From a virus: DNA of 64,000 bases. The DNA lies in the IMG/VR virus record IMGVR_UViG_3300027811_000039, positions 21,149-85,148 of that record. One strand, 5' to 3'. The notes under the pieces are model-generated. The model worked only from the letters and a program-made list of their open reading frames with translations, was not told where the DNA came from and made no database searches. Within the stretch, counting starts at the first letter, position 1; each line of letters begins with the position of its first letter. Of this stretch, positions 13,000 to 34,422 are shown piece by piece. A program made the translations under genes and the position numbers.

Positions 13000-13269
13000 T
13001 TATGGATTACATAAAATCTCGTCATGGTGCCCACAATTCCTGAAAATAATATTTTCTTTTCCATCTATACTAAATGTAATTCTAATATCCATATTTCCAC
13101 TAATCTCATAAACTCCTCGATACCCTTTGACCTTTTTAAATCTCAAACTATTTGGCAATGGTTCAGAAAACAACTGGACTATCGCCTTATTTATTACCTT
13201 TTGTATTGCTCTATCTAATTTCATATATTGTTTTGTGAAATAATTAGTTCTCTGCAAATCTTTAAACAT
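13000..13269 (-). CDS. RelE/ParE-superfamily toxin
   Basis: RT..F.KQY.KL...SLRFKKVKG..GVYEI...DIRITF...I.FRN.G.HDE. Overlaps the upstream antitoxin gene. Confidence 0.75.
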   Translation of the reverse strand: MFKDLQRTNYFTKQYMKLDRAIQKVINKAIVQLFSEPLPNSLRFKKVKGYRGVYEISGNMDIRITFSIDGKENIIFRNCGHHDEILCNP

Positions 13270-13546
13270 CTGATTTTAACCCATCTAAATGTTTCATTAA
13301 ATTTTCTAGATCCATCGGTTTACTGACTCTTCCCAACCTGATATCTTCATCAGCCTCACGTTCTCCATCTTGCCATTCTTTTGTCCAGAACCATGCTTGG
13401 CTTTTATCAATAACTAGAACTGGTGTAATAATTATCTTTCCATCTTGGACGATAATTTCCAAATTATCCCCTTTCTTTATCTCTAACTCTGCTACAACTT
13501 CTTTTGGTAAAGTTATTTGGGATTTCTCCCTGAGTGTCAGAATCAT
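13262..13546 (-). CDS. AbrB/MazE/SpoVT-family antitoxin
   Basis: LREKSQITLPKEV..EL.IK.GD.LEI...DG.III.P, then QAWFWT.EWQ.GERE. Confidence 0.85.
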   Translation of the reverse strand: MILTLREKSQITLPKEVVAELEIKKGDNLEIIVQDGKIIITPVLVIDKSQAWFWTKEWQDGEREADEDIRLGRVSKPMDLENLMKHLDGLKSDV

Positions 13547-13630
13547 TTCCTTCCCCACTTTCCTACATTCCAACTTTCCTACATTTGCATTGTACTATGA
13601 TTATGATTACTTTGTCAACATGTAAGCAAA

Positions 13631-13660: not shown

Positions 13661-13945
13661 TTACTTTCCATTCCCATTCCTTGCGACTTCAATTGTTGAC
13701 TTACTGGAAGAATATAAACCACTAGCTGATAATCCAGTAATAATCCCAAGTAATACAGCCATTGGTATATCCTCCTGTGAACTAGGCATGAAAAAATAGG
13801 ATACTAAAATACCCAACACTATATTTGATACTGGGTAATACTTTTTATCCATCCCTAGACTTTTAAATACTTGGGTTATAACTATAATGATAGGGATGAA
13901 AAAAGACATCAATTGCCAATCATTTGCATTAATAAAAATTTCCAT
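13661..13945 (-). CDS. Holin
   Basis: Three hydrophobic segments with P++...+TQV.K...KKY.P...LG...GI+.GL.ASGLYS..K. Start at ATG 13945 with AGGAGG RBS. Confidence 0.75.
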   Translation of the reverse strand: MEIFINANDWQLMSFFIPIIIVITQVFKSLGMDKKYYPVSNIVLGILVSYFFMPSSQEDIPMAVLLGIITGLSASGLYSSSKSTIEVARNGNGK

Positions 13946-13958
13946 ATAGGCCATCCTC

Positions 13959-14258
13959 CTATGGACAAAGAGTAGGCTGCACAACATCAAATGTTCTACT
14001 AGAAGTGAAAACATTTCCAGATGGATAACCAATTCTTACCTCGAATTTATAGACTCCAGTTGTCGGTAAATCGCCAGAAGCTACTTGATATGCTACTTTA
14101 CCACCAGTAGTATTATAAAACATCATGGTATGACTAGTTAATGATTGACCATCATAAATGCATAATGAAGCAGTAGTTGCTCCCGATAAATCAACGACTG
14201 CATCTGAGGGATCAACAATAGTAAAGATTAATAATGCTCCTATGTCATCTACTTTCAC
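13959..14258 (-). CDS. BppU-N-like baseplate/adaptor beta-sandwich protein
   Basis: D.G..L.F.+VD....VDLSGAT...G.V.Y....GDL...G.Y.FEV.+. Confidence 0.55.
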   Translation of the reverse strand: MKVDDIGALLIFTIVDPSDAVVDLSGATTASLCIYDGQSLTSHTMMFYNTTGGKVAYQVASGDLPTTGVYKFEVRIGYPSGNVFTSSRTFDVVQPTLCP

Positions 14259-14270
14259 TCATGTTTCACC

Positions 14271-16727
14271 TCAACTTCTCTCTATCACGACTTGATGATT
14301 AATTTCATTAAATATTTTGATAGTATAATTAATCTTAATATTTATGATCATCGTATTTGGAATTGGTACTGTAAATATAGATACTGCTGGATCAACATGG
14401 ATTAATTTACCTATCATAATCGTTGGATTAGAGACACTAAATATTGCAATTGCTGGCGTTGGATAAAGTACATAATCTACAGTGATTCCATTAGCTGAGA
14501 AATTAGCTACTGCTGGCGTTGGATAAAGTATATAATCTACAGTGATTCCATTAGTTGAGAATGTTGCAGTTGCTGCATCAGGATATATACTTAAAGTGAT
14601 GCCTATCCCATTAGCACTGAAAGTTGCCACTGCTGGCGATGGATAAATAATAAAATCAGCAGTGATTTCATTCGTGCTAAAAGTTGCTACTGCTGGCGTT
14701 GGATATATTACTAAATTTATATCTACATCTTGAGCAGAAAAGATTATTACTGCTGGAGTTGGGTTGATTATTGATATAAGTGTTGGAGGTGGAAGAGATA
14801 ATGTGATAACACTTTCTGTTGCATGTTGAGTTAATCTTATTGTTGGAGTTGCAACGACAAAATTAATAATCGTTGGCATAGCTGTTATGGTCATATTTAC
14901 CTGAATAGAATTCGTGCTAAAATTAGTTACTGCTGGTGATGGATGAATTGTTTGAACATTTCTTACTCCATTTGATGTGAATGTTCCAATCGCCGAATCT
15001 GGATAAATTATTAAGTTATTTTTTACTGAATTTGCAGTAATATTTATCACTGTTGGCGTAGGATAAATTTTAGTTATCGTAACCAATGGACTTTGAGCTG
15101 ATACATTAATGATCTCCGTAGTCGGCTGATATGAAATAGATGTTCTGACTGATCCATTAATTGTTCCATTATTAGATAATGTGGTAGCATTATAGGCTAC
15201 TGTCCCACTCTGTTCATTCAATTTCCAATAACCTTGTAAACCAGAAGTTCCGGGATTGATTTCGCCTAACATGAAATCCTGAATTTGAGTTTGGGTTCGT
15301 GCTATACTCCACAACCTAACTTCATCAATTACGCCCTTGAATCCAAAATTTACTGGGCCACCATTTTCCCATATTGCAAAAAATAGATCCGTGGAACTAT
15401 TTATGATTATAGTTCCGGTAGCTGGTGTAGTAACTCCTACTGCACCATCAATATATAAGATAATATTTGCTCCATTATACGTTATTGCAATATGATGAAT
15501 TTCAGATATTGTCCAAGCGGAAATATTGTATATCTGGAGGACTCCACCAGTTACACTTGTAACAAAAGTAGATCTTAATTCCCCACCATTATTAGGTAGT
15601 GTAAATTGATCTAATGTTCCTCTTTTGTACATTGTTCGTGGTGATCCTGCTGGCTGAGCTGATGGAACGGCATCTAGCCTTATGCGATATTCAATCGTTA
15701 TTGCAGCAGTTGGCTCAATAGATGTTGATCTTGGAACTTGAATATAATTACTAGTTGTACCATTAAATTTATAGGAATAATAAGTCTTTGGTGCAACATT
15801 GAAAACTTGGCGTGGATTGGGAGCTGTGATACTTATGGTAGCTGGACTAGGTTGAATCGTTACAGTCCCTAATATTATCGTTGGATTTTGGGCTGAAAAA
15901 TTAATAACAACAGGATCTGGTAACACAAGGGAATTAGCAACCGATGGGCTTTGAGCAGATATAGCTATTATTTCTGCCTCTGGTTGATACGATATAGACG
16001 TTCTAACAACCGTTCCATTTATATCTCCATCATTGGTTGGAGTATTTGCACTAAATGCTATGGTTCCAGAATCTTCATTTAATTTCCAATATCCAACTAG
16101 TCCAGAAGTTCCGGGATCTACTTCACCTAACATATTGGCAGATATTTGGGGTTGAGTCCGGGCAGTGCTCCAAATTCTTACTTCATCAATCATGCCTTTA
16201 AATGCAAAACTCACTGGGCCACCAGTTTCATAACCACTAAAAAATAAATCGGTGGTGTTATCTGTGCTTATAGTTCCAGTTGCTGGAGAGGTATTTACTG
16301 CAACACCATCAATATATTGGATGATATTTGTGCCGTCATAAGTTATGGCTACATGATGAATTTCCGAAGTTGTCCACGTTGATATATCTGCAATTTGAAG
16401 AACTCCACCTGTTCCATTTGTTGAAAAAACTGATCTAAGCTGACCGCCATCATTGGGCAAAGTGAAAACATCTAGTGTTGTCCTTTTATAAATTACTCTT
16501 GGAGATCCTGTTGGTTGTGCTGCAGTAAGAGCATCTAGCCTCATTCTCCATTCATAGGTTATCGCTGCACTTGGCTCAATAGACGTTGATCTTGGAACTT
16601 GGATGTAATTCGTATTTACACCATTAAATTTATAGGAATAATAAGTTTTTGGTGCGACATTGAAAACTTGGCGTGGATTGGGAGCAGTTATGGAAATACT
16701 TACGGCAGAAGGATTAATTGTTGCCAT
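14271..16727 (-). CDS. Tail fibre/receptor-binding protein: two LamG/ConA-like domains plus 20-aa repeats
   Basis: Duplicated H.A.TYDG...Y.DG...F.G.IDEVR.W...GL.GYWKL.E.SG module at 861-bp period. C-terminal IYP.PA..+FS.N repeats. Confidence 0.75.
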   Translation of the reverse strand: MATINPSAVSISITAPNPRQVFNVAPKTYYSYKFNGVNTNYIQVPRSTSIEPSAAITYEWRMRLDALTAAQPTGSPRVIYKRTTLDVFTLPNDGGQLRSVFSTNGTGGVLQIADISTWTTSEIHHVAITYDGTNIIQYIDGVAVNTSPATGTISTDNTTDLFFSGYETGGPVSFAFKGMIDEVRIWSTARTQPQISANMLGEVDPGTSGLVGYWKLNEDSGTIAFSANTPTNDGDINGTVVRTSISYQPEAEIIAISAQSPSVANSLVLPDPVVINFSAQNPTIILGTVTIQPSPATISITAPNPRQVFNVAPKTYYSYKFNGTTSNYIQVPRSTSIEPTAAITIEYRIRLDAVPSAQPAGSPRTMYKRGTLDQFTLPNNGGELRSTFVTSVTGGVLQIYNISAWTISEIHHIAITYNGANIILYIDGAVGVTTPATGTIIINSSTDLFFAIWENGGPVNFGFKGVIDEVRLWSIARTQTQIQDFMLGEINPGTSGLQGYWKLNEQSGTVAYNATTLSNNGTINGSVRTSISYQPTTEIINVSAQSPLVTITKIYPTPTVINITANSVKNNLIIYPDSAIGTFTSNGVRNVQTIHPSPAVTNFSTNSIQVNMTITAMPTIINFVVATPTIRLTQHATESVITLSLPPPTLISIINPTPAVIIFSAQDVDINLVIYPTPAVATFSTNEITADFIIYPSPAVATFSANGIGITLSIYPDAATATFSTNGITVDYILYPTPAVANFSANGITVDYVLYPTPAIAIFSVSNPTIMIGKLIHVDPAVSIFTVPIPNTMIINIKINYTIKIFNEINHQVVIERS
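14461..15120 (-). repeat. About eleven 60-bp (20-aa) in-frame tandem repeats
   Basis: GGATA recurs at 14461, 14521, 14581, 14641, 14701, 15001 and 15061 (GGATG at 14941), all in a 60-bp register. Confidence 0.8.
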
Positions 16728-17243: not shown

Positions 17244-18077
17244 TCAGAATTGATTAGGCCATTTGTGACCGTAGTCGGCGATTAGTTCCGGTGGGCATGG
17301 GCCGACTAAGGATATAAATTTATCTACATCATCTTTAGTTATGGTAATACGCATTCCTTGACCAGAAATTTTATTACTTTTGGTTATCGTGGAATGAATT
17401 CCCAAATTACTAAGACCTTTAACAAGTATTTCCTGATCTTTCAAAGGGAAATAATTGGTGTACAAAGTTAGTCTAGTTCGGTATTTTTCTTCAGTTCTAC
17501 TACCATCGCCAAGATACCAATGCAATAACATCCTCGGAGTTAAAACTAAATCTGCTGGCACACGCTTTTTTGGCTTGTACCAGCGTTTTTTCATCTCTCC
17601 TAAGATTGGAATATGGACGCTCCTGAATTGATATAATTCCGAAGCATTCATTTTTGAACCTTTATTTATTCCACCTGACATAATTTTTTCCTCCGCAGGA
17701 CGAATACCCATGGGACTTGTTGGTAATCCATTTAATTTAAATTCTTCCTTCAACCATTCCATATGATTTAAAGAAATAGAACCATGACCATAACCAGCAG
17801 AAAGCTTACTCGGAGTAAATATTAAACTACCATCTCCCAATAAATTACCTTCAAGTATCTCTCTTAATGGTTCCGTAATTTCAATAAATTGATTTTCACC
17901 AAGACAAGCACGTTGTCGTCCAAGACTGTGGGAAATTTCAAAACCATTTTGTTTAAGATACTTACTAATAACTTCCCGATCTGTTCCAACTTCTTTTGAT
18001 ATTGCCCTGAGTGATAAACCTTTGTTATGGTATTCAATTATTTCCTGAATTTTTTCTGGTGACAGAACTTTTGCCAT
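17244..18077 (-). CDS. Free-standing LAGLIDADG homing endonuclease with N-terminal HTH
   Basis: ILEGNLLGDGSL and LLHWYLGDGS motifs. Start at ATG 18077 (AGGGGGAG RBS). Confidence 0.85.
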   Translation of the reverse strand: MAKVLSPEKIQEIIEYHNKGLSLRAISKEVGTDREVISKYLKQNGFEISHSLGRQRACLGENQFIEITEPLREILEGNLLGDGSLIFTPSKLSAGYGHGSISLNHMEWLKEEFKLNGLPTSPMGIRPAEEKIMSGGINKGSKMNASELYQFRSVHIPILGEMKKRWYKPKKRVPADLVLTPRMLLHWYLGDGSRTEEKYRTRLTLYTNYFPLKDQEILVKGLSNLGIHSTITKSNKISGQGMRITITKDDVDKFISLVGPCPPELIADYGHKWPNQF

Positions 18078-18137
18078 ATTAACTCCCCCTCTGTCACCCA
18101 TTGTACTCCACCAATGGATACAATTCAAGTTGGAATT

Positions 18138-18663: not shown

Positions 18664-19971
18664 TTAGACATTGGTAACTGTTGGTACTGGTAACGTGAAA
18701 TTAATTACCGCTGAATCAGGATGGTAAGATATAACTTCTCTTGTTGTTCCATTTATTACACCATCATTAGTGCCATTATTAAGGGCATTAAAAGCAGTCA
18801 CTCCACTAATCTCATCTAATTTCCAATATCCAACTAGGTTGCTTGAATTAGGATCTACTGAACCCATCATATTGGCTGAAATTTGAGGTTGACTTCTAGC
18901 CACATCCCAAATACGTACTTCATCAATGAATCCTTCATAGCCAAGGAAAACTGGGCCACCATTTTCATATATCCCAAAATACAGATCGCGTGTATTATGT
19001 GATATAGTTCCAACTATTGGAGTTGTAACTCGGGCTACTCCATCAACATAAAATATGACATTAGCCCCATCATATGTGGTAGCTAAATGATGGATAATAT
19101 TCGTATCCCAGCTGGTAATATTAAAAATTTGCTCTATCACCGTAACCCCAACAACAAGTCTTGAAACCACTGTACCTTGTGTAGCTCGCGTAAAATATTC
19201 ATATCCTATTGCAAAAGTATCGGAATATTTATGGATGATTCTTGGGGTTGCTGTTGCTTGTAATCCAACAATGGTATTCAATCTAGTCCGACATTCTACT
19301 GTAATTGCTGCCGTTGGCTCAATGGTCGTAGTTCTAGGAATTTGGATGTAATCAGTATTTGAACCATCAAAATTATAACCATAGTAGACCTTTTGTGCGA
19401 CATTAATTACTATAGGGTTGAGTGTTTCTGCTGAAAAATTTAATAAATTTGATGCAGGCCCAAGTGTAATATGCGTATTATCAGATTCATACCACACCCA
19501 ATTGAAATCAACGACCTGTGCCGTGAGTGATCCATTAGTTATCCTAATGGCATAACTCATCTCTTGGTCTAGGATAAATTCCGGTTCCGCTTGATTCCAT
19601 TCAAGCAATGGAATAAGGAAAATATCTTCAAGGATTGTTCCCACGCCAGTTAGTGTTGAATCAGTATATATTTCGATAGTTGGAACAACATTACTTGAAT
19701 ATTTACTGTTAAACACTGGGGAAGTTGTTACCCCTATGGCGAATGTCGCATTTTCATTAACCGTGATACTAATCAATGGTGCATACGTTATGATATGCCT
19801 ACATGTTAAATGGACAAACTTATCTTTTCCTACTACAATTTGAAGATCTAGTGTGCTAGAACCGGGTATTGTTATTTGTTTTACCCAACTAAAAGTTGAA
19901 CCAGAAAATAAAAATTGGAGTTCATAAATAGTTGGGCGTGATACTCCTAGATACCCACCATTCAAATTCAA
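18664..19971 (-). CDS. Virion protein: beta-sandwich paralog domain fused to a LamG/ConA-like domain
   Basis: N-terminal ~170 aa resembles 20022-21028 (ends DFNWVWYESDN). C-terminal LamG resembles 14271-16727. Confidence 0.7.
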   Translation of the reverse strand: MNLNGGYLGVSRPTIYELQFLFSGSTFSWVKQITIPGSSTLDLQIVVGKDKFVHLTCRHIITYAPLISITVNENATFAIGVTTSPVFNSKYSSNVVPTIEIYTDSTLTGVGTILEDIFLIPLLEWNQAEPEFILDQEMSYAIRITNGSLTAQVVDFNWVWYESDNTHITLGPASNLLNFSAETLNPIVINVAQKVYYGYNFDGSNTDYIQIPRTTTIEPTAAITVECRTRLNTIVGLQATATPRIIHKYSDTFAIGYEYFTRATQGTVVSRLVVGVTVIEQIFNITSWDTNIIHHLATTYDGANVIFYVDGVARVTTPIVGTISHNTRDLYFGIYENGGPVFLGYEGFIDEVRIWDVARSQPQISANMMGSVDPNSSNLVGYWKLDEISGVTAFNALNNGTNDGVINGTTREVISYHPDSAVINFTLPVPTVTNV

Positions 19972-21858: not shown

Positions 21859-24213
21859 TTAAAACTGTAATCGTTTAATCCTTAATCTTGTCATTCTCTC
21901 TGAGGAATTTATAGTTGTCGCAAGAGATGCGAATCCAACAAGTCTAACCGTAGAACCTGACTCTATATACATAGTAACGGATCCATTAGTCATACTGTCA
22001 CTCTCCATTGCATTATGATAACTTAATGCTGCTCTGTTAATACCATTGATTTCCACAAAGTGTTCTACTAAACCACCAGTTATTCCTGCTCCCCACCTAA
22101 CAGCACAATCAATATGATATATCCCATTACGTCTAGGACGGAATATTCCATTTGCTGTACTCCACTCACGAAGGGGATCATTTATTTTTTGGGCTGATGT
22201 AACCCCTGATGGATCAAATTGAGTTGATAATTTTTTCAGATTGAGTGCGAATGATGTCCCTGCTGGTGCCACTTGTTTGGAACTTGGATATGTTTGAATA
22301 TATGTGTTCCTATTGAAATATCCAAAAGCACCATTTTGAGCACCCCATAAAGCTGATTCAGGTTGATATGATACTGGTTGTTCGGTAGGAGTTAATTGAA
22401 CCGCATCCACCAAATACCTCATATTTGGATTAGCACTACTCTGAGTCATCGAAACCTCTAGATATACTGTACTCGTCGGGAGATTCCTTATATTTGGAAT
22501 AGCTACTCTTGTCCATTTATACCAATTTGCCGATGTTGCCAATAAATCATAATCCGCAATCCCTACCCTAGATATCCTATGTGCAATTCCTCCTATGAAA
22601 TCCATCGCCCATACTTCTAATCTTGCTTTTCCATCAACAGTAGTCCCCGGGAAAGAAGATATATAAGCACTATAAGAATACGGCCCATTTAACTCAATTG
22701 TCTCATTTATGAACGCTAACTGTTTTGGATTCCTCCTACTACTTCCAACTACAAGAGCTTGGAAATCATTCGGTGTCCTATTTTCCTGTGTCATTCCAGC
22801 AAGGCCATTCAGTAATTCTGATGTAAATCTTGGTGCTGGTGTTACTGCTGTGGTCATTGTGCTAGGTGATGTCGTGTTACCCCAATACCATGTATTGATA
22901 TTGGTATTCAACGGTCTAGCTACCGCATATGTTCCTTCTGCGTCAGGTGTTGATTCTGTTGATCTCATTAACTCAAAACTATGATCCTTAACCATATTTC
23001 CAGAATACGCATTTTCTTCCCATACACCTTGACGGTTATCAAACTTGAATTTATGCTCTTGAATCTTAGCACCATCTGTAAATGTTATCTTTCTTGTCTG
23101 GTTTTGAAGGGTAATTTGCGTCTGTTCAGGTTCCGAATAATTATAGGTTATCTCTTGAATCCTAGTCGTAAATTCAATATCTGGATTTATTAAATGATCA
23201 ATAACATTTACGACATCACCCAATCGTGCTGCCTCAAATCCATGACCAGTTAGAATTTCCAGATCAAGTGCTGTCATTTTATACTCAAGGCGTGGAGAAT
23301 TATTACTCTGTAATGCACTCCATGTTTCCTCTAATAATAATTCTGGATCATTTTGATCTGGATTAGAATAGAATCCCAACCTATTCCTTGTTCCATTTGA
23401 TCTTCCATATGCTGCCTTTGCTACTGGATCCTCAACATAAGTTTGCGTTATTGGTTTATCCGCAGGATCTCCACCTATTGTTGTCCACAATACATTGCCA
23501 AAATCCAACCGTCTAATGCCGCCGGGAATTTCTTGAGCTTTTCCATATCCGTATAATGCTGTTTTCAGCTCATAAGTTTCCACATTTCTTTCAAGACTAA
23601 CAATATCCTTGCTATATTCAAACCGTTTTCCATTATCAGATCCAACTTGTGAAACAAGGTCAATAAAACGCCCTGAAATGGAACCATTTGCTGTTAATGT
23701 TACCCTGAATTGCCATTCCAATCCGAACACCTGAGTTAATGCATATATCGCTTCTGTTTTACTACTTAATTCTGCCTTTATGGATTCAGTTCCAGTTGTT
23801 GCTATAGACCCAGCCACCCACCTTGAAGTAGTACCAAATGCTAATATTGCTGCTAATGTTGCAGTTGCATCTTGTTCCGAAACTATCAAATAACTGATAA
23901 ACTCATCATTCATCTCTGTTATAAATTGATGTTCACAAGTAACTTTCTTGATAACTTCATCGCCATGTTCTTCTGCCATTTTGACTATTTCAAAGAGTTG
24001 AACTGCTTCATCTTTATCCTTAAATGCCACCAAATTACCTTCAATAACAAATTCGGAATCTGGATGATCCCCCGGTACTGTAAAAGTAAATGTATTTTCC
24101 GCATTAATCTGAACATAATGCAAGGCATCCCAAAATGGGCATGGGCCATAAACTACATCATTTAAAACAGCCAGAACATATTCTGTTTGACCATCAAGAA
24201 TTGTTAAATCCAT
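21859..24213 (-). CDS. Tal/tail-spike hub (prophage tail endopeptidase-like, minor structural protein)
   Basis: Follows Dit. F+Y.K+I..+ER.V+..E+.TALYG.GK...PELLLE.T...L motif, with C-terminal accessory domains. Confidence 0.8.
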   Translation of the reverse strand: MDLTILDGQTEYVLAVLNDVVYGPCPFWDALHYVQINAENTFTFTVPGDHPDSEFVIEGNLVAFKDKDEAVQLFEIVKMAEEHGDEVIKKVTCEHQFITEMNDEFISYLIVSEQDATATLAAILAFGTTSRWVAGSIATTGTESIKAELSSKTEAIYALTQVFGLEWQFRVTLTANGSISGRFIDLVSQVGSDNGKRFEYSKDIVSLERNVETYELKTALYGYGKAQEIPGGIRRLDFGNVLWTTIGGDPADKPITQTYVEDPVAKAAYGRSNGTRNRLGFYSNPDQNDPELLLEETWSALQSNNSPRLEYKMTALDLEILTGHGFEAARLGDVVNVIDHLINPDIEFTTRIQEITYNYSEPEQTQITLQNQTRKITFTDGAKIQEHKFKFDNRQGVWEENAYSGNMVKDHSFELMRSTESTPDAEGTYAVARPLNTNINTWYWGNTTSPSTMTTAVTPAPRFTSELLNGLAGMTQENRTPNDFQALVVGSSRRNPKQLAFINETIELNGPYSYSAYISSFPGTTVDGKARLEVWAMDFIGGIAHRISRVGIADYDLLATSANWYKWTRVAIPNIRNLPTSTVYLEVSMTQSSANPNMRYLVDAVQLTPTEQPVSYQPESALWGAQNGAFGYFNRNTYIQTYPSSKQVAPAGTSFALNLKKLSTQFDPSGVTSAQKINDPLREWSTANGIFRPRRNGIYHIDCAVRWGAGITGGLVEHFVEINGINRAALSYHNAMESDSMTNGSVTMYIESGSTVRLVGFASLATTINSSERMTRLRIKRLQF

Positions 24214-24234: not shown

Positions 24235-26196
24235 TTAAAGCCAACGCGGAGTATATTCCAACGTGATTATTGCAGCTGTATCATTTGATAGGAAATAATG
24301 ATCTCCTGTTAATACTGGGAATTGAGACTGAGCACTAACGAATTGCATAATACTCTCCGTTGTAAGGAAAAAATTATTAGCATAAGAGCCACTTGTATTT
24401 ATTTGGAATGCATCATACGTCGATCCTGTTGTTAATATTTCAAATCTACTTGTCGTGGGATAAATATCTAATCGAAGATATGTTGATGCCAATGTTTGGT
24501 GGAATGTAATGACTGGATAACCATAAGCAGATCCCTCATTTGATACTAAAGTTCCATATAGAGTTTCATCCCAAGTATATTTAACTGATGCTTTTGTATC
24601 CTTGATCAATGGTTTTCTAAGTTTCCACGAATCATCAATATCCGTATCATTTCTGATAATCTGACTAAATCTCACATCTTCATAACAAGCATTGACCCTA
24701 TATGCTGTACTATTTGAAACCGAACCCACCCAAGCAGTTGAAAATGCTGTCATCTTCGGTGGCCTTATTGATGTCGCAGAAGTAATCTGATACGAAGTAT
24801 TATTTTCAAGATCAACCAATGTCACTTTCATTAATCCAGTTACTGCCGATCCCGTCAGATACCATCGTGCAGCTAAATAATATGGTCTACCAACTACCAG
24901 ATCTACACCTATATCTAGATCAACTACTTTTTGTTGCAGACCAGTATTAGATATTTCAAATCTTACAACATCTTCACCAGATCCAAACCCAGTTCCATGT
25001 GATACAGCAATCCTGTCTATTGTCGGCCCTGCTGAAAAAAGACCCCAATCAAAGAATGCTCCGAACGTGGATGGTTGGCTTACTTTCTTGAAAAACATAT
25101 CAATGGAACCTTGTTGACCATTGAGTTTATTCGTAGGTTTTACTTTTAAGAATTCAACAGCCCTTGTTTGTCCACCCTTCATCCAACTTGACGAATATGC
25201 CTTACGTTCCAATTGCAACGCATCAAAATACACTTCCACACTTTGCTGGGAAGTTGTCAATATTTTTAAAACAACAGTTGTCGTTCCTGCTGCAGCCGTA
25301 AATGAAAGTTCAAGCCGTTGATATGCATTCCAATCCAATACCAAAGATGAACTATCAGTAGTCGTTGCTCCACCATTATTTTCTAAACTCTGGAGTTTTA
25401 CCATACCTTGTCCTCTTAAATAAACGCTAAACGTATAACTAAGCCCAGCAGTTATCGCAACAGCTACAATGGACGTTCCTTCAATTGCAGTAACCCCGGG
25501 AGTTCTCAGTTTCAATGTCTCCGAATCAATAAGTCCATATGCTCTCACATCATTCAAGGTTGTACCTGTTCCAATGGTCGTAAATTGGCTAGTTCCACTT
25601 GCTACAGAAGTTATTGCTGTGAGCATATTAGTAGTGTGTTCTTCAACATAAATTCCTTTATTATAAGCACAATCCTCAAATCTTGGTGCATTAGTACCCT
25701 TCTCAACAAATCCAAGTCCTGTCATATCTCTTGTATAAGCACTTGATGCCCTAATGAATGTTGCGGGTGCTTCTTGTGAAATAACATGAGTCAACGAACT
25801 TGTGGAATGGGAAACTCCATCTGGAACCAAGAATATTAGCGTCACTTTCCCAAATGAAAGTAATTGGTCGAACTTAGTCTCACTAGATAAAACTGCATAA
25901 TATAATCTATCTGTTTCATCATCCACTATCAATTCCTGCAATCCACCTTTAGGATCCAAGAAATTTGCAATCTTTTCAATTGTCTTTCTCAAATTAGGTT
26001 GATCTGAATCCTTAACCGTTATCTCGAAATCAACGGTTTTACTACTCAAATCATTCCTATAAAAATAAATACCGTCCCTATTCGGCACGGTTGCAGATCT
26101 CGTATTAATCGGTGGTGAAACATTCCGTTTAACTTTATTGATAATAATATCTTTATATTCTGACCTTATACCTCCAAACGAAAAACTAAATGCCAC
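24235..26196 (-). CDS. Distal tail protein (evolved Dit) with inserted carbohydrate-binding and LamG-like domains
   Basis: FSF.GI.SE...L+.DDE.DR.YYA...F+VPD N-terminus and ...+EYTPRWL C-terminus around insertions. Confidence 0.85.
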   Translation of the reverse strand: MAFSFSFGGIRSEYKDIIINKVKRNVSPPINTRSATVPNRDGIYFYRNDLSSKTVDFEITVKDSDQPNLRKTIEKIANFLDPKGGLQELIVDDETDRLYYAVLSSETKFDQLLSFGKVTLIFLVPDGVSHSTSSLTHVISQEAPATFIRASSAYTRDMTGLGFVEKGTNAPRFEDCAYNKGIYVEEHTTNMLTAITSVASGTSQFTTIGTGTTLNDVRAYGLIDSETLKLRTPGVTAIEGTSIVAVAITAGLSYTFSVYLRGQGMVKLQSLENNGGATTTDSSSLVLDWNAYQRLELSFTAAAGTTTVVLKILTTSQQSVEVYFDALQLERKAYSSSWMKGGQTRAVEFLKVKPTNKLNGQQGSIDMFFKKVSQPSTFGAFFDWGLFSAGPTIDRIAVSHGTGFGSGEDVVRFEISNTGLQQKVVDLDIGVDLVVGRPYYLAARWYLTGSAVTGLMKVTLVDLENNTSYQITSATSIRPPKMTAFSTAWVGSVSNSTAYRVNACYEDVRFSQIIRNDTDIDDSWKLRKPLIKDTKASVKYTWDETLYGTLVSNEGSAYGYPVITFHQTLASTYLRLDIYPTTSRFEILTTGSTYDAFQINTSGSYANNFFLTTESIMQFVSAQSQFPVLTGDHYFLSNDTAAIITLEYTPRWL

Positions 26197-26217: not shown

Positions 26218-28737
26218 TTAAGGAGTAACCCCTCTAGCCCTTAATTGATTTTGTTGAAGTCTGAATAATTCTTTCGCTATCTCAGCGATATCAGTTTCTT
26301 TTCTAACATACACATTTTCCACCACAACAGGCGAATATGTCATTTCTGGTTGAGTCCCAGCAACGCTATTCGGTGTTGTTGTTCCAGTTGGTGCCGACAT
26401 CGCCGGATATGCCGTACCTGTATCCCCTGAAATAACAGTCGGAACACCAACTGATGCTATCCGTGATGTTGCCGTGCTAGTTGTCATACTTCGAGTTGCT
26501 GCCGTTGATCCACTTGATATCTCGGATGCTATTGTACTGAAATTACTTGATTGTGCTGCTTTTGTTGCACCTTTTATTTCCTTACTAAGTTTTGAAACAT
26601 GTTGAGTAACTGCTACCCAATCTGCATTACTTTCCTTTGCCTTTGCAGACGCATCCTTGATCGCTTGACCAAAATTCTCATATTGAAGTTTTGCATCATA
26701 TAATGCTGTTTCAGTATCAAGGAATTCTTTTGTATTGGTCTGCCCTGCTTTTGATAATGCATTCAACTTATTGGTTAAATCATTTACTTTTAGTGCAGCA
26801 ATTCTTTGCTGTGCTCCTATGACCTCAATAGATTTTCCTAAATATATGGTGCTATCAGTAGCAAGACCATTTTGAAGTCTAAATATTTCTAACTGTTTTC
26901 CTAAGATATCTATTTGATGATCAAAATAATCCAGAGCTGTTAATGCTATTTCTGTGGCACTACTGAATTCTTTAATTGCTCCTGTAGTATCAGTTACAGT
27001 ATTTCCCAATTTTTTGGCATCATCTGCAGCCTTTTGGAGTGAATTACCATAATCATTTGTCGCAGGAGTTGCCAACCCACTAATTCCACCAGTTACACTA
27101 GAAACAATACCTTTTACTTGGTTGATAACATTATTTGTCAATGCTGACCAGTTTTGAGATATAACTGCTTGGGCATTCCCAATTGACATTTGTGCATTTG
27201 AAAATGATACTTCTGCAGAACCAAGGGCATTGCTTAATCCTGATCCAAACGAATAAACAGAACGTCTAGCTGCATAAAAACCATTCGCAATCGCTGCCAA
27301 TGGCCCACCAAAACTTCCTAATCTATCAATAGTTGGTTGAATAATATCCAACATTCTATTAAATGCATTGTACATTACTGTTACGAGGCCCAACATTGTC
27401 CTTTTAGCATCTGCATACATAGCAGAAAAACCAGCAACGATTAATGCTGGTAATGCTTGAAATACTTTTGATATAGAACTCCAATTAGTAGCAACGATAT
27501 AGGCAAGTGCTGCAAACGCTGCTGCTGCCCCTGCAATTAAAGCAAACTTCAAAGATACTCCATTCAATACCAATGCTAAAGCTGTCATTCCACCGATTAC
27601 AGCTACTAATGTCGGAACAAAATACCCACCTAATTTAGCTGTTGCACCCTGTACTGCTGCCGTTATCTTATCCCAATTAGTGGCTATTAAATAAGCAACA
27701 TATCCGAATATTGCTCCCTTGATAATTGCTGGTAATAGAGCTAAAACAAATCTCCCGATCCACATTACAGCAAGGCCAATTGCTGGAACGAGTGCCCCCG
27801 CTATTGCTCCTGTTACAACGAATATCATAGCTAGAACTTGTGGTGGTATCATTTGTTTAATCGCTGCCGACATACTACCAGTTTTCTCTGCCAACTCTAT
27901 TACATTTTTAGTTAATTCTCTCAGATAACCAGTAAACTCGATTAATCCCCCTATGGCAGATTTTATCCCTAATAAATCAATGAGCATCGCTCCAAAATTG
28001 ATCATTATTTGTCCGACATTATCCTGCAAATTTGAAAACATTCCGAGTAAAGTCTTTGATTGTGCTTGCATTGATCCACCGAAACTATCAGCCATTCCTT
28101 TGAGCAAAGCACTTATTCCAGTTGCAGCATCAACCGTTCCCTTTGTAACTTGGGCCATTGCACCTTTGGTATCTGTGCCTATATTTTTAGCAAGTAATTT
28201 CCATACTGGTATCCCTGTCTCTGCTAATTGATTCATTTCCTCTGCTGATACCTTGCCCTTAGCATTCATCTGCCCTAATGCTCGGACAACCCTTGCTATT
28301 TCTACTTCCCCGCCACCCAATGCACCAACGGCATCCCCTATATTAGTCATCATTGGAATAATACTTTTTGCTTCAAATCCAAATGCTAATAATTGTTTCG
28401 ATGATTTCTGCAATCCTATCAATGTAAACGGTGTATGTGCTGCGAAGTCTGCCATCTCAGCTAAGAATTCTTTAGCTTTTTTTGCACTTCCTAATAGCGT
28501 TGTAAACGCTACCATCGTTTGTTCCATATCCCCAGCCATCTTTATTGATGCTAATCCAAATGCACCAATAGCGATTGCAGCTGCACCAACCATTTTGGAA
28601 AAAGTTACGCTTGCTTCCTGAGCTGCCGTTGCACTTCCCGCAAATGAATTTAAAGCATTTTGTGCTTGGTTCATTCCATTTATAAACGCTGAAACCGATG
28701 CCGAAACAACAACATCAATTGTATCAATCAATCCCAA
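26218..28737 (-). CDS. Tape measure protein
   Basis: F.TLLGS...A...L.E+.DFAA.TPF...LGQM.AKGK+..EE+NQL.E.GIP domain, plus Ala/Gly-rich hydrophobic middle. Confidence 0.95.
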   Translation of the reverse strand: MGLIDTIDVVVSASVSAFINGMNQAQNALNSFAGSATAAQEASVTFSKMVGAAAIAIGAFGLASIKMAGDMEQTMVAFTTLLGSAKKAKEFLAEMADFAAHTPFTLIGLQKSSKQLLAFGFEAKSIIPMMTNIGDAVGALGGGEVEIARVVRALGQMNAKGKVSAEEMNQLAETGIPVWKLLAKNIGTDTKGAMAQVTKGTVDAATGISALLKGMADSFGGSMQAQSKTLLGMFSNLQDNVGQIMINFGAMLIDLLGIKSAIGGLIEFTGYLRELTKNVIELAEKTGSMSAAIKQMIPPQVLAMIFVVTGAIAGALVPAIGLAVMWIGRFVLALLPAIIKGAIFGYVAYLIATNWDKITAAVQGATAKLGGYFVPTLVAVIGGMTALALVLNGVSLKFALIAGAAAAFAALAYIVATNWSSISKVFQALPALIVAGFSAMYADAKRTMLGLVTVMYNAFNRMLDIIQPTIDRLGSFGGPLAAIANGFYAARRSVYSFGSGLSNALGSAEVSFSNAQMSIGNAQAVISQNWSALTNNVINQVKGIVSSVTGGISGLATPATNDYGNSLQKAADDAKKLGNTVTDTTGAIKEFSSATEIALTALDYFDHQIDILGKQLEIFRLQNGLATDSTIYLGKSIEVIGAQQRIAALKVNDLTNKLNALSKAGQTNTKEFLDTETALYDAKLQYENFGQAIKDASAKAKESNADWVAVTQHVSKLSKEIKGATKAAQSSNFSTIASEISSGSTAATRSMTTSTATSRIASVGVPTVISGDTGTAYPAMSAPTGTTTPNSVAGTQPEMTYSPVVVENVYVRKETDIAEIAKELFRLQQNQLRARGVTP

Positions 28738-28768: not shown

Positions 28769-28801
28769 AAAAAGATAACTCAACCACATTGATTGAGTTA
28801 T
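28769..28801 (-). terminator. Terminator-like hairpin between the chaperone genes and the tape measure gene
   Basis: 12-bp stem ATAACTCAATCA/TGGTTGAGTTAT followed by CTTTTT. Confidence 0.6.
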
Positions 28802-28971
28802 TTTTGTCTTCTTGCTTTATCTTCCTCAATTTTCCGCATTTTTGCTTCATACGAATAAAAAGCATTCCATTCATAGAACTCTGCAGTTCCCATTCTCTCT
28901 CTTAATTCAGCTACGGTCATCCTAAGTTCTTTTGCTAAAATAAATTCAAATCTATATTCTCCATCAAGGAC
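28798..28971 (-). CDS. Tail assembly chaperone C-terminal (GT-like) extension, +1 frame
   Basis: Hand-translated VLDGEYRFEFILAKELRMTVAELRERMGTAEFYEWNAFYSYEAKMRKIEEDKARRQK. It overlaps the chaperone stop, and no RBS-linked start was seen. Confidence 0.75.
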   Translation of the reverse strand, partial: VLDGEYRFEFILAKELRMTVAELRERMGTAEFYEWNAFYSYEAKMRKIEEDKARRQK

Positions 28972-29335
28972 GAAATCGTTTCTCCGCTTCTTTTACAGCT
29001 AACTCCGTCAACCCCGAAATAGCTAAGATTTCATTCAAAACTGTATCTACTGCTTTTGCAGATTTACCCTGAATCTCCAAATAATCTTGTTCGGTGAAAA
29101 CAGGATCAATAACACCATGAATAAACATTAGCAGCTCTAGTCGATCCGAATTGATTTCTTCGCCCAACACCGCTTCTTTTCTAAGTTGTTGTTGTTTCGC
29201 CTTACTGAACTCCCTAATTAAGACATCCCCACCCCACTCAGGAACATGAATTTCCTTTTCTTTAAGTGGAACGGATTTGATCTCACTTGCCGACAACCTA
29301 CTTTTCTTCTCTTTCATAAAAAAACTTCCCCCCAT
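28964..29335 (-). CDS. Tail assembly chaperone (G-like)
   Basis: +.VPEWGG.V.+RE....GV+DP.F...V+..I..+SGL, located before the tape measure gene. Confidence 0.8.
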   Translation of the reverse strand: MGGSFFMKEKKSRLSASEIKSVPLKEKEIHVPEWGGDVLIREFSKAKQQQLRKEAVLGEEINSDRLELLMFIHGVIDPVFTEQDYLEIQGKSAKAVDTVLNEILAISGLTELAVKEAEKRFRP

Positions 29336-29343
29336 AATTTTAA

Positions 29344-30990
29344 TTAAACGGCTGTTGACCTTGAAACTGTTCCTGAAACTTGAAATGAAGCAGTAAATGT
29401 TGCTGCACTATCAATGGCAACAGGCACCTCATAACTCGTTAAGAAACAAGTCCCACTATATTTCGCATACATACCATTAACTGGTGCTGTTGTCCCGGGA
29501 TAATACACGAAAGCAGCCGATGTTCCCAATATTCCAGATAGATATCTATTTGGTGTGGTAGAAAATATTCCCTCTATCGAAATAGTTGCATCCCTCAACC
29601 CCGCAACATATTCTTTCGAAGAACTGCAAAACACCGAAACCTCGACTGTATCTAATGTCCTCGGAAATGTTACACTCTTGATCCAACAATTTAAAAGTCT
29701 CTCGGTTCCACCAGAATCCGTAATGCTGAAACCAGAATTCTTCCCATGAACTGCATGGACTGGACTTGGGTAAGTCAGAAGTAGATCACTCAAACTTTCA
29801 GCAAAATTTAGATCAATATCTGCACCAGTTACACCATAGGCAGCACCCAATCCATTCAAATCACTTGAATATTGCCATGCATTCCAGAAATCATTTACAT
29901 AATTTCCAAACGCAAGATAATCAAATGATGGATAAACCCCAGCACCAAAATTAGCTGCCAACCATAACGGTGCAATTAATCCCACTCCACCTTTGACAGA
30001 ATGGACTAATTCATTAGGCACGGTTGCCATTGTGTCAATAGTATAATAGGCCGTATACAACATTACCTGTTTACCAGTTAATTGCCTGAACTTATTAACA
30101 AATGCTTCAATAAAATCATAACCCGAATCATTCGTAACTGCTGGATATATACTGCCAAATTGATTTTCAAAATCCAATACTGGCATTATATCTCCCCAAT
30201 CAGAACCACCTAATTCATTGTCAATAAACGTCTTAAATAATATTGCCTCTGCTTCCGCATCTGCTACAGAAGTCAACCATCTTAAATTTGCAACATCATA
30301 GTAATTCATTCCTTTGAACCAATAAAACCCTACTGCTATTCCTGCAGCTCTTGCAGCTGCAATATTAACAGCAAGCATTTGGGCATCCTGTGAATAATGG
30401 GATGGTGCTGCATCTGCCGTTACGACCCATGCACCATCTGCTGAATCTGCATAGGTTCCAGTACCGACACTATTGACATCAAAAATCGTTTCCCAAACAA
30501 CATCATCTGTACTATATTCAACGAGCAAATCATTGAATGTCCTACCTGTGACTTGTTTTAAAACGAAATATCTAATGTTGGTCGATGCAGTTAAATCAAC
30601 TTTTACCCATTGTGCCGATCCACTTCCAATGGTAACAGAAGTCGCAAGACTTCCATCTGTAAAATTTGCCAATGCCCCAGCCGTAGGTGCAATCGAAGAT
30701 GTTACAGTTTTTCCACCTGCTACCTCTGTCAAAGCAGTATTATAAACTTCTATTTCATTGAAAACATTATCTCCATTCACATCACTACCATTACAAGTAA
30801 CCCGAATGTACCTAGCTGTATGGAAATCAAAACCATTCCCACCAGCTTTCAACCATACAAATCTTACCCCTGCACCATACATAGTTGCCCAATTGATAGG
30901 ATATTGAGCACTTGCTACATCTGCACCCTGAACCAATCCAGCTTGATCCACCAAGCTGTACCATTGAAAATATCCCGCTGACTGAGTCAC
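29344..30990 (-). CDS. GH25 lysozyme with an inserted discoidin/F5-8-like domain, fused to a C-terminal tail-tube domain
   Basis: GADVASAQ, PVLDFE and WQYSS...G.DIDLN motifs. The last ~140 aa are near-identical to 31036-31449. Confidence 0.85.
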   Translation of the reverse strand: MTQSAGYFQWYSLVDQAGLVQGADVASAQYPINWATMYGAGVRFVWLKAGGNGFDFHTARYIRVTCNGSDVNGDNVFNEIEVYNTALTEVAGGKTVTSSIAPTAGALANFTDGSLATSVTIGSGSAQWVKVDLTASTNIRYFVLKQVTGRTFNDLLVEYSTDDVVWETIFDVNSVGTGTYADSADGAWVVTADAAPSHYSQDAQMLAVNIAAARAAGIAVGFYWFKGMNYYDVANLRWLTSVADAEAEAILFKTFIDNELGGSDWGDIMPVLDFENQFGSIYPAVTNDSGYDFIEAFVNKFRQLTGKQVMLYTAYYTIDTMATVPNELVHSVKGGVGLIAPLWLAANFGAGVYPSFDYLAFGNYVNDFWNAWQYSSDLNGLGAAYGVTGADIDLNFAESLSDLLLTYPSPVHAVHGKNSGFSITDSGGTERLLNCWIKSVTFPRTLDTVEVSVFCSSSKEYVAGLRDATISIEGIFSTTPNRYLSGILGTSAAFVYYPGTTAPVNGMYAKYSGTCFLTSYEVPVAIDSAATFTASFQVSGTVSRSTAV

Positions 30991-31035
30991 ATCCCCCTCA
31001 CCCTCCTCCCTTTAAAATATTAATATGAAAAACAA

Positions 31036-31449
31036 TTATGCTGTCGTAGTCCTACTGACTGTACCCGATACTTGGAAAGCTGCTGTAAAAGTCGCTGCTG
31101 CATCTACGGCAGTCGGGATCTCATACGATGTCAAGAAACAAGTTCCAGTATATTTAGCATATTTCCCTGCTACTGGTGCTGTCGTCCCGGGATAAAAAGC
31201 AAATGCTGCAGAAGTGCCCAATATCCCATTCAAATACCCATCAACTGTGGTTGAAAATATTCCTTCCACACTTAATGTCGCATCTCTCAAACCAACGACA
31301 TATTCCTTGGCTGAACTACAAAAAACCGATACTTCAACTGTATCAGCAGTTCTTGGGAATGTGACACTTTTGACCCAACAATTTAATAATCTTGGTGTTC
31401 CACCCGAATCTGTAATACTAAATCCCGCATTTTTACCATGTACTGCCAA
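31036..31449 (-). CDS. Major tail tube protein
   Basis: AVHGKN...T.EVS.F....KEYV.GLRDAT+S+EG.F...Y.IPT.VD....F.A.FQVSG. TTG start at 31449. Confidence 0.85.
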   Translation of the reverse strand: MAVHGKNAGFSITDSGGTPRLLNCWVKSVTFPRTADTVEVSVFCSSAKEYVVGLRDATLSVEGIFSTTVDGYLNGILGTSAAFAFYPGTTAPVAGKYAKYTGTCFLTSYEIPTAVDAAATFTAAFQVSGTVSRTTTA

Positions 31450-31470
31450 TGTAAACAACTCCTTCCAAAG

Positions 31471-32169
31471 TTATAATCTCTTAACTCCTGTATTAAAAGC
31501 TGCTGTCCCAGCTCCCGAAAATGTCCACGATGTACGAGTATATCGTTTGATATTAGTCCCTGTAGATGCTCTCTGTGCCGTTCTAACCGATGAAGCAAAT
31601 GTCTGAACTGTTGCCCACGATGTTCCAGCAGATGAATGTTGAATATTAACCGTTACAGTTATACCACCAGTAATTCCATCTAATTGCAAATACGTCAATA
31701 TCCCTCCTGTTGTTGCGACTAAATTATCGTATGCCGTACCAACGCCAGAACTTGCCCTTGTCTGGAATGCTATATGGGAGATAATATTATCTACTCCAAG
31801 TGTTGCTTGACCAGCAACCGTAACGCCAACTGCTCCATCTACAGGACTCATGATTTCATACGATGTTTGGTCAGTCTTTATTCCATAACCCGGTTGACCA
31901 ACTCCCGATCTATTTGGATAATACGTCCATATACTAGTCGATGCTAAAGTCTGATTAAATACATAATCAGTTTCTAATGTGCTTCCCGCAAAAAATCCCT
32001 CAGCAGATATCGTGCCATCTCTTAATCCCACAATATAAGTTTTACTTTCTTGATTGAATGCACTTACATCTACCACATCTGCAGATTGTATTACTGAAAA
32101 ACTTTTGAGATAAGTTGTCAAATCATATCCATTAATATACGTTCTTGCATTTTTACCATGATTAGCCAA
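31471..32169 (-). CDS. Tail-tube paralog with C-terminal beta-sandwich extension
   Basis: ANHGKN...DV+DVSAF...K.Y+.GLRDG.IS.EGFF...YEI.SPVDG. Confidence 0.75.
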   Translation of the reverse strand: MANHGKNARTYINGYDLTTYLKSFSVIQSADVVDVSAFNQESKTYIVGLRDGTISAEGFFAGSTLETDYVFNQTLASTSIWTYYPNRSGVGQPGYGIKTDQTSYEIMSPVDGAVGVTVAGQATLGVDNIISHIAFQTRASSGVGTAYDNLVATTGGILTYLQLDGITGGITVTVNIQHSSAGTSWATVQTFASSVRTAQRASTGTNIKRYTRTSWTFSGAGTAAFNTGVKRL

Positions 32170-32187: not shown

Positions 32188-32604
32188 CTAAGTCGATATG
32201 GTTTTCATTACAGCAAAATTACACGCTACAAGATTGCGTGAATTTTCATCTATACCCAAACGAAATGGAGATTGTATTGCATTGACCCTAAGATAAAAAC
32301 TTCCAGAATCTAAGCTAGAAGCCTTTATCGTTTGATTAGCTATTCCAATCAAAACCCTGAAAGCACTTTCTGCTTTATTTCTAGCGAATTGATATTCGGT
32401 TGATCTGGAAATAATCTGAATTCTTGGGTTCTCCCATGCTGCAACATTAGTCGATCCGAATGTATCCTGTGGTCTCTCTCCACCAGTTTCATAAATAATT
32501 AAAAGTGAATCTGGTTTATTGGGCGAATACGACTTGAAAATATTAGTTCCAACAGTACCGATTCCATTATCTTGAAGGTGTCTTGCCAATTCATCCAATA
32601 TCAT
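32188..32604 (-). CDS. Tail terminator / minor capsid protein
   Basis: L...GIG..G.+IF....P..PD....YETGG..P...P..Q+..R...P..LG.DEN.R....NF. Confidence 0.8.
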   Translation of the reverse strand: MILDELARHLQDNGIGTVGTNIFKSYSPNKPDSLLIIYETGGERPQDTFGSTNVAAWENPRIQIISRSTEYQFARNKAESAFRVLIGIANQTIKASSLDSGSFYLRVNAIQSPFRLGIDENSRNLVACNFAVMKTIST

Positions 32605-33801: not shown

Positions 33802-33879
33802 AATATTACACCCCTTCCATATATTTTCAGTATATACATACTTAATCAGCATGTATAATTCAATTTGGGGTGGTTAAAC

Positions 33880-34422
33880 ATGAAGAAACCCAAACTTTAT
33901 ATAGGTGATAATAACTTAATTAAAACTTGTTCTGATTGTGGACATATTAAAGAAATAGGCGAATTCCATAAGAATAAGAATGGACTCTTTGGTGTTAGGG
34001 GAAATTGTAAACATTGTAGAATTGAGTATAATAGAACATATTCAAAAAATTACGCTAAAACTCCAAAAGGAATAATTACCTGTGCTCGTTCAATCAAAAA
34101 ATATCAGTCTAGCGAAAAATATAAAACGACCTCAAGGCTATATTGGCAAAATCACAAAGAGGCACTGAACAGAAAAACTAGAAATGCAAAAATCAAACGA
34201 AAGATAATTATGGATCAATTTGAACCTATAGATCATATTCGCGTAGCCAACAGAGATCAATGGACATGCTACTTGTGTAATAAACAAATTGAAGGAAATG
34301 ATTTATCCATTGATCATGTTATTCCACTTTCAAAAGGTGGCAGTCATACATATGAAAATGTTAAAGCCACTCATTTAATTTGTAATTTAAGAAAGGGAAC
34401 AAAACTAATCAAAGTCATATGA
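33880..34422 (+). CDS. HNH endonuclease (opposite strand)
   Basis: C..C...K...EF...C..C N-terminus and W.CYLC...SIDHVIPLSKGG.H...N+...H..CN..KG. Confidence 0.9.
   Translation: MKKPKLYIGDNNLIKTCSDCGHIKEIGEFHKNKNGLFGVRGNCKHCRIEYNRTYSKNYAKTPKGIITCARSIKKYQSSEKYKTTSRLYWQNHKEALNRKTRNAKIKRKIIMDQFEPIDHIRVANRDQWTCYLCNKQIEGNDLSIDHVIPLSKGGSHTYENVKATHLICNLRKGTKLIKVI

Follow-up and report, generated by a model that had tools for sequence, protein, structure and literature searches.

Phage particles are known to carry lysins on tips, knobs, fibres, tape measures and inner capsid proteins, and the tail tube is not among the carriers named in reviews of these enzymes (PMC6116005, PMC10194240). Tail-associated lysins include the Tal proteins of TP901-1 and Tuc2009, Pb2 of T5, the tape measure protein (TMP) of TM4, gp13 of phi29 and gp5 of T4 (PMC6116005, PMC10194240). 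Tail tubes can themselves be decorated, with Ig-like domains on lambda gpV and T5 pb6, an FN3 domain on SPP1 gp17.1* and domain2 in YSD1, and these additions are small and non-enzymatic (PMC8718954). A tube subunit fused to a toxin domain is found in type VI secretion, in the specialised ('evolved') Hcp proteins (PMC8262886; for minor Hcps, PMC13213661). Here, we describe a 548-residue protein encoded in a 64,000-nucleotide stretch of viral DNA (the window, bases 21149-85148 of the 86.7-kb IMG/VR virus record IMGVR_UViG_3300027811_000039, rated 99% complete), in which a GH25 muramidase with an inserted discoidin domain is followed by a linker and a full tail-tube domain (hereafter, the fusion). 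We think it likely that this protein is a virion-associated cell-wall hydrolase anchored by a tail-tube subunit.

Like the tail-associated lysins, the fusion joins a hydrolase covalently to a tail structural protein, is encoded by a gene of the tail operon and occurs together with a separate endolysin; unlike them, its carrier is a paralog of a tube subunit and not a tip, hub or tape measure protein, and the enzyme is N-terminal. With the decorated tubes it shares an extra domain fused to the tube fold and the coexistence of plain and decorated subunits (gp17.1 and gp17.1* in SPP1). However, the known decorations are of about 10 kDa and C-terminal or inserted, whereas the fusion bears a 45-kDa two-domain enzyme at its N-terminus, and it is encoded by a separate duplicated gene, unlike the SPP1 form, which arises by frameshifting. 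The likeness to specialised Hcp lies in an enzyme-bearing paralog of a tube subunit that occurs beside the plain subunit, with which it presumably co-assembles. Hcp effector domains differ in being C-terminal and in being delivered into a target cell by a contractile bacterial weapon. The fusion gave no match to the Hcp profile and had no detectable sequence relation to Hcp, and its context is a siphophage tail operon, not a type VI secretion locus; specialised Hcp is, in our comparison, its nearest analogue in design, which does not imply membership.

The preliminary description of this DNA had presented the arrangement as one not known from described siphophages, and our searches agreed with this. 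No tube-fused lysin was found in the full-text literature, and none of the cultured phages in INPHARED covered more than half of either this fusion or the second one described below. Fold searches of BFVD and of the AlphaFold DB clusters returned no match spanning enzyme and tube (best template modelling score by query, 0.34), and a search for related loci in IMG/VR with the full fusion protein gave no match. What would be new is the tube as anchor of a virion lysin; virion lysins themselves are already known.

Profile matches showed that the minus strand of the window carries a siphophage tail operon of canonical layout, with three tail-tube genes, coding for tail-tube proteins 1 and 2 (TTP1 and TTP2) and the fusion, between the tail terminator gene and the genes for the chaperone and the tape measure (Table 1). 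A tube motif shared by these three open reading frames (ORFs) had been read from the sequence beforehand, and BLAST and PHROG matches bore this out. All three proteins matched PHROG major-tail-protein families (for the fusion, phrog_10528 at E 5e-23); fusion residues 413-546 were 83% identical to the 140-aa TTP2 ORF (93% positives, gapless, E 7e-74), and the N-terminal half of TTP1 was 34-36% identical to both of these tube sequences (E 8e-17 and 2e-12). PF06199 scored 26.1 bits in TTP2, above its cut-off of 23.8, and 19.7 bits in the fusion, below it, while a purpose-built tube hidden Markov model (HMM), trained on 112 short tube proteins, matched the fusion tube domain at E 4e-49. When the modelled tube part was compared with solved structures using Foldseek, it matched the monocin tube protein MttP (8qhs/9j1k, E 3e-9, root-mean-square deviation [rmsd] 2.4) and the tubes of 80alpha, lambda (gpV), R4C and gene transfer agents (GTA), so that the predicted siphophage tube fold, a beta-sandwich flanked by a helix, was confirmed at the level of the model.

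The proposed start of TTP2 at 31449 proved to be the better one, with a Shine-Dalgarno sequence (GGAAGGAG) 9 nt upstream of the TTG and a 137-residue product whose first residues, MAVHGKN, parallel the MANHGKN start of TTP1. The fusion gene has a strong ribosome-binding site (RBS) upstream, GGGAGGAGGG. Its tube domain opens with the native motif H-AVHGKN (from residue 411 on) and runs to the native C-terminus; therefore, a whole tube subunit has been appended. Production of a free tube domain from an internal translation start, as occurs in some endolysins, was considered and rejected, the linker having neither an RBS nor an in-frame start codon. A predicted complex of TTP2 with the fusion tube domain scored 0.14, compared to a mark of 0.32, and was counted neither for nor against binding.

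For the enzyme, PF01183 (GH25) matched residues 183-379 of the fusion with 45.9 bits (cut-off 27, E 1e-11). The first two strands of the barrel were located in residues 20-52, both by alignment with insertion-free homologs (these residues align with GH25 profile positions 2-30 of one such homolog, P0010) and in the AlphaFold model (strands at 20-25 and 42-52). The model of the 548-residue protein had a mean predicted local distance difference test (pLDDT) score of 84.6, mostly above 90 in the GH25 part and below 50 at residues 407-414 of the linker. Its Foldseek matches were all either GH25 enzymes or tail tubes; the former comprised Clostridium perfringens SleM (5jip, E 2e-9), Psm (4krt), cellosyl (1jfx) and a fungal GH25 (2x8r), and the nearest solved structure, SleM, is that of a cortex-lytic enzyme. 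Retention of the Asp...Asp-x-Glu residues of GH25, part of the preliminary description, was upheld: D24, D273-F-E275 and D391/D393, which we take to be the catalytic residues, were invariant across all aligned homologs, and LDFE of the fusion aligned with LDVE of SleM. Apparently, then, the domain is an active muramidase. Compared to SleM, Psm and cellosyl, it has the same barrel fold and the same Asp / Asp-x-Glu / Asp set, but differs in the discoidin domain in the beta2-alpha2 loop, the N-terminal GYFQ(W/Y)Y peptide and the fusion to a virion protein, and in having neither an SH3/CW-type wall-binding repeat nor a signal peptide.

The discoidin domain, of about 140 residues, indeed lies inside the barrel, between strand beta2 and helix alpha2. 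PF00754 recognised it marginally (29.8 bits against a cut-off of 28.2) and PF22633 matched as well, fold matches in AlphaFold DB covered residues 57-190 (31% identity, rmsd 1.7), and the insertion was missing from P0010-type homologs. The closest cultured relatives of the discoidin domain were minor tail and fibre proteins of Bacillus phages. Ahead of the barrel stands a conserved peptide, M-T-Q-x-x-G-Y-F-Q-(W/Y)-Y (residues 1-20, 30931-30990), modelled with low confidence; its GYFQ(W/Y)Y part precedes GH25 in nearly all homologs, irrespective of the anchor.

Given that the record is a metagenomic contig and that paralogous tube sequences lie 1.3 kb apart in it, two adjacent genes could have been joined by an assembly or sequencing error, or the gene could be decaying. 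The same in-frame architecture and gene order were, however, common to three independent assemblies from different projects: the window, the ENA contig P0005 and the JGI contig L010. A complete TTP2 copy stands in frame behind the GH25 module in spite of a linker that varies (the window and L010 agree at 1 of 11 linker residues), and the paralogous tube sequences, about 70% identical in DNA, are too dissimilar to drive mis-assembly. Selection was assessed as dN/dS (nonsynonymous over synonymous substitution rates) by the Nei-Gojobori method, between the window and L010 unless stated, and the values (GH25, 0.07; discoidin, 0.12; tube domain, 0.10) placed every domain of the fusion under purifying selection. 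We consider an artefact or a decaying gene to be next to impossible.

When the fusion tube domain was compared with the TTP2 encoded alongside it, amino acid identity was 79-83%, the proportion of synonymous differences (pS) was 0.74 and dN/dS was about 0.05. The two had been called near-identical in the preliminary description, which mildly overstates the likeness: identity falls to about 70% at the DNA level, with saturation of the synonymous sites. Saturated synonymous sites together with this residue identity indicate an old duplication, no gene conversion and selection that keeps the anchor close to TTP2 in sequence. That the 83% identity stems from a recent duplication or from gene conversion was rejected on account of the saturation and of orthologous groups that stay separate. 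TTP2 of the window was 87% identical to its L010 ortholog.

Homologs were collected by a phmmer scan of 1.84 billion representatives, followed by Pfam and PHROG scans of the matches. The database search for a joint GH25 and tail-tube architecture that had been suggested for this locus returned the P0005 and L010 relatives and, in addition, an independent lineage of three proteins (P0010, P0157 and P0158; 55-62% identical) consisting of GH25, FN3 and a C-terminal tube domain. The P0010 phage is an otherwise different siphophage, with a Mu-type portal, and its fusion gene again lies between a tube gene and a chaperone gene. The C-terminal domain of P0010 was 37% identical (E 9e-17) to the 132-residue major tail protein encoded just upstream in the same phage, and its alignment to the tube family extends from the GKN motif through the C-terminal end, interrupted by a 75-residue insertion. 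An AlphaFold model of this part, of moderate confidence (pLDDT 63.6), matched tail tubes only, and the assignment leans on the sequence as well. The two kinds of fusion tube domain had no BLAST similarity to each other; each matched its resident tube protein only, and this tracking of the resident protein is what co-assembly predicts. In the GH25 tree, the two tube-fused clades were also widely separated, and members anchored on Tal or Dit stood between them. As judged from these sequences, fusion of GH25 to a tube paralog arose at least twice. Such fusions are rare (three plus three clusters at 90%), and word-based searches for longer proteins with either tube domain, which are of limited sensitivity, found only three members per lineage.

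Across phages, the N-terminal module (GH25, in some cases with discoidin and often with FN3 behind it) sits on different tail proteins: on Tal in P0011, P0012, P0019 and P0022, on a C-terminal Dit domain in P0009, whose gene stands beside an Amidase_3 endolysin gene, and on proteins matching the PHROG 'tail protein' annotation in P0014, P0016 and P0018, while other homologs had C-termini without assignment. A sister phage, represented by P0011 and the loci L018 and L019, has the order terminator, TTP1, TTP2, chaperone, TMP, Dit and is without the third tube gene. Its 1200-residue Tal carries at its N-terminus a GH25-discoidin module 57% identical to that of the fusion, and residues 422-1200 are orthologous to the Tal of the window (54% identity over all 784 residues of the latter). 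The module ends at the same boundary in both proteins, directly after a shared E(S/H)LS(D/S)LL(L/I)T, and the tube-fused clade was sister to P0011 in a maximum-likelihood tree of the enzyme modules (support 100/98). Fusion tube domains were 76-88% identical to TTP2 of the window and L010, much closer to these than TTP2 of L018 was (54%); therefore, TTP2 was copied after the two lineages had split. The GH25-discoidin-Tal fusions of the sister phage are encoded at L018:8802-12404 and L019:10001-13603. To our knowledge, lysin domains of known Tal proteins are C-terminal, and an N-terminal lysin load on Tal is unusual.

Two further relatives showed unusual arrangements. The P0009 phage (L004:5290-11848) has the order TMP, Tal, a 513-residue protein and a GH25-discoidin-FN3 protein ending in the Dit C-terminal domain, and the 513-residue protein contains the Dit N-terminal (Sipho_tail) domain only. 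From this gene order, it looks like Dit was split in two and moved behind Tal, with the lysin on its C-terminal half. The P0016 contig encodes tandem GH25 proteins (619 and 461 residues) between the major capsid and head-tail connector genes. This interval is the usual place of decoration proteins, and the gene position hints that the module may be head-mounted too.

The attachment of the enzyme module to Tal or to a Dit-like domain in relatives argues strongly, at the level of sequence, for a virion-borne lysin. It also bears on another reading, according to which the fusion is a soluble second endolysin, absent from the virion, whose tube-like domain only oligomerises, binds the wall or is clipped off. 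GH25 is a common catalytic domain of endolysins, with the phiSM101 endolysin Psm among the top fold matches here; phages with two lysins exist, and the holin gene of the window has no adjoining lysin gene. However, a bona fide Amidase_3 gene is present in the genome, the fusion gene lies inside the tail operon, and the module of the relatives is found on full-length Tal, a structural protein. A role of the C-terminal domain in wall binding or oligomerisation would also leave unexplained why roughly 80% of its residues match the resident tube protein while synonymous change is saturated, and why a second lineage employs a paralog of the different tube protein that it encodes itself. We therefore regard a second endolysin as unlikely. 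A whole-genome profile scan detected a single GH25 domain, in the fusion gene, and no Amidase_2 in the genome, and the Pfam scan found no recognisable lysin or hydrolase domain in TMP, Dit or Tal. By these profiles, no other wall hydrolase is recognisable in the structural module, and the fusion is presumably not needed as an endolysin because a separate Amidase_3 protein and a holin are present. Directly downstream of the holin gene, where an endolysin gene would be expected, are a RelE-like toxin gene and an antitoxin-like gene (13000-13573, minus strand), the Amidase_3 gene being about 46 kb away.

The fusion could also be virion-borne but serve mainly as an adhesin: discoidin, together with a GH25 groove of weak catalytic power, would bind glycan of the wall and keep the tail sideways on the cell, a role proposed for Ig-like tube decorations, and cleavage would be secondary. 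The tube decorations known to date have a binding function (PMC8718954). The Bacillus phage relatives of the discoidin domain, being minor tail and fibre proteins, would fit such a role, and so would the two GH25 proteins in the head module of the P0016 relative, where local digestion for DNA entry makes little sense. Against a binding role, the GH25 catalytic positions are all invariant across anchors and lineages, and dN/dS is lower in the GH25 part than elsewhere in the protein, as expected for an active enzyme; taken together, we find a mainly adhesive role quite improbable.

Returning to a wall hydrolase anchored in the tube, we infer the incorporation of the fusion into virions, its enzyme activity, its copy number and its location. 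During assembly of the tail on the tape measure, the C-terminal TTP2 copy would take a TTP2 position in a tube ring, and the flexible 12-residue linker would let the 45-kDa head of muramidase and discoidin hang outside the tube. At the Gram-positive wall, the discoidin domain may hold glycan while GH25 cuts bonds between N-acetylmuramic acid (MurNAc) and N-acetylglucosamine (GlcNAc) locally, which would help the tail to reach the membrane, and lysis at the end of the cycle would be left to the separate Amidase_3 protein and the holin.

As for placement, solved tubes (GTA, T5 and lambda) have the N-terminus of the tube protein in ring-to-ring contacts, and its deletion in T5 abolishes polymerisation (PMC8718954). 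Both these N-terminal contacts and the tip position of the module in the sister phage speak for a fusion that is either incorporated sparsely or placed in a terminal ring close to the tip. Sparse copies distributed over the shaft are a reasonable possibility, if somewhat short of an even chance, and a terminal ring, most likely proximal to the tip, is a more tentative proposal. Several points weigh against anchoring of the enzyme in the tube or leave it less certain. By analogy with the solved tubes, the 410-residue N-terminal load might hinder ring stacking. There are almost no fixed differences between the fusion tube domain and TTP2, so the sequence indicates no specific position in the tail; this near absence argues for interchangeability of the two wherever TTP2 goes. 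Finally, the Amidase_3 gene is not adjacent to the holin gene and was assigned as endolysin by family only, and the soil phage is uncultured and known from metagenomes only.

We also considered a bolder and rather doubtful placement, close to the shaft display by co-polymerisation that the preliminary description had inferred, in which the fusion polymerises with TTP2 along the whole shaft and the tail becomes a rod studded with active muramidase-lectin heads. If true, this would give the phage an enzymatic coat for cutting through a thick Gram-positive wall or a spore cortex, or alternatively a means of freeing the particle from wall debris, like a receptor-destroying enzyme. All known virion lysins are credited with local digestion at the tip, and such a function would be distinct from that.

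The paired long and short tail-tube genes that precede the fusion gene (31036-32169) are conserved as far as cultured Microcystis and Arthrobacter phages. Two major tail proteins have been noted for the actinobacteriophage clusters AM, AU, AW, BI, CC, DJ and EL (PMC11080557, PMC10652937). As in the window, two-tube siphophages such as Arthrobacter phage Kovu (gp61/gp62) and Mae-JY09 have a tube gene of about 230-250 codons and then one of about 137-142 codons before the chaperone gene, homologous to TTP1 and TTP2; in the Microcystis phage Mae-JY09, the protein encoded ahead of the major tail protein was 36% identical to TTP1 over the full length. Unlike these phages and the actinobacteriophage clusters, the window adds a third, enzyme-bearing tube gene.

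Table 1. Positions in the window of the tail genes, the parts of the fusion and the lysis genes, with the matches on which each assignment is based.
Feature	Position	Strand	Basis
Tail terminator	32188..32604	-	PF12691 E 2e-17
TTP1, 232-aa tail-tube protein, C-terminal half Ig/FN3-like	31471..32169	-	phrog_9522 E 3e-28, full length
TTP2, 137-aa minimal tail-tube protein, TTG start	31036..31449	-	PF06199 26.1 bits; phrog_10528 E 1e-23
Fusion, 548 aa, GTG start: predicted GH25 muramidase, inserted discoidin, linker and full tail-tube domain	29344..30990	-	
Fusion aa 20-52, GH25 strands beta1-beta2 including putative catalytic-site Asp24	30835..30933	-	Alignment with P0010, AlphaFold
Fusion aa 53-195, discoidin / F5_F8 type C (CBM32-like) beta-sandwich	30406..30834	-	PF00754, PF22633, fold matches
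Fusion aa 196-400, remainder of GH25 barrel with D273-x-E275 and D391/D393	29791..30405	-	PF01183
Fusion aa 401-412, hypervariable flexible linker	29755..29790	-	L010 comparison, low pLDDT
Fusion aa 413-548, complete tail-tube domain, TTP2 paralog	29347..29754	-	Identity, HMM, Foldseek
Tail assembly chaperone, likely true start ATG at 29317	28964..29335	-	phrog_344 E 2e-13
Tape measure protein (TMP)	26218..28737	-	PF20155 only
Dit (distal tail protein) with carbohydrate-binding insertion	24235..26196	-	PF05709, PF22768, weak CBM_4_9
Tal (tail hub)	21859..24213	-	PF18994, PF06605
Amidase_3 protein, 278 aa, probable endolysin	60028..60864	-	PF01520 E 4e-44
Holin	13661..14032	-	phrog_1299 E 4e-19

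Elsewhere in the tail region, an open frame (28800-28964, minus strand) runs beyond the chaperone stop up to the tape-measure gene, which fits the long chaperone form that is usually produced by frameshifting. After Tal, the minus strand encodes two large Laminin_G_3 (concanavalin-like) proteins, within 14271-16727 and 18664-19971, and likewise three paralogs of about 160 residues (phrog_5335); by these family matches, they probably make up the receptor-binding apparatus. Three homing-endonuclease genes were found in the window, a LAGLIDADG gene among the tail-fibre genes (17244-18128, minus strand), an HNH gene that lies between head-tail connector genes but on the other strand (33865-34422, plus strand) and an HNH-NUMOD gene beside the Amidase_3 gene (60925-61527, plus strand). 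The 'Prophage_tail'-type Tal, the carbohydrate-binding insertion of Dit and the Amidase_3 protein together point to a Gram-positive (Bacillota) host. A search for related loci in GTDB genomes gave only distant GH25 matches, in metagenome-assembled genomes, from which no host was inferred, and megablast of 10 kb against cultured phages gave no match.

Until now, the tail tube has appeared as no more than a passive channel bearing small binding decorations. If the proposed anchoring is true, the tube lattice tolerates a large N-terminal cargo, which would make the fusion a natural design for the display of proteins on phage tails. The compact GH25-lectin module, which has no signal and comes from phages of Gram-positive soil bacteria, is in itself a candidate lytic enzyme. 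The finding raises the testable question of what purpose tails with two tube proteins serve in the many cultured phages that have them, and it would mean that phages shift one lysin module among Tal, Dit-like and tube anchors.

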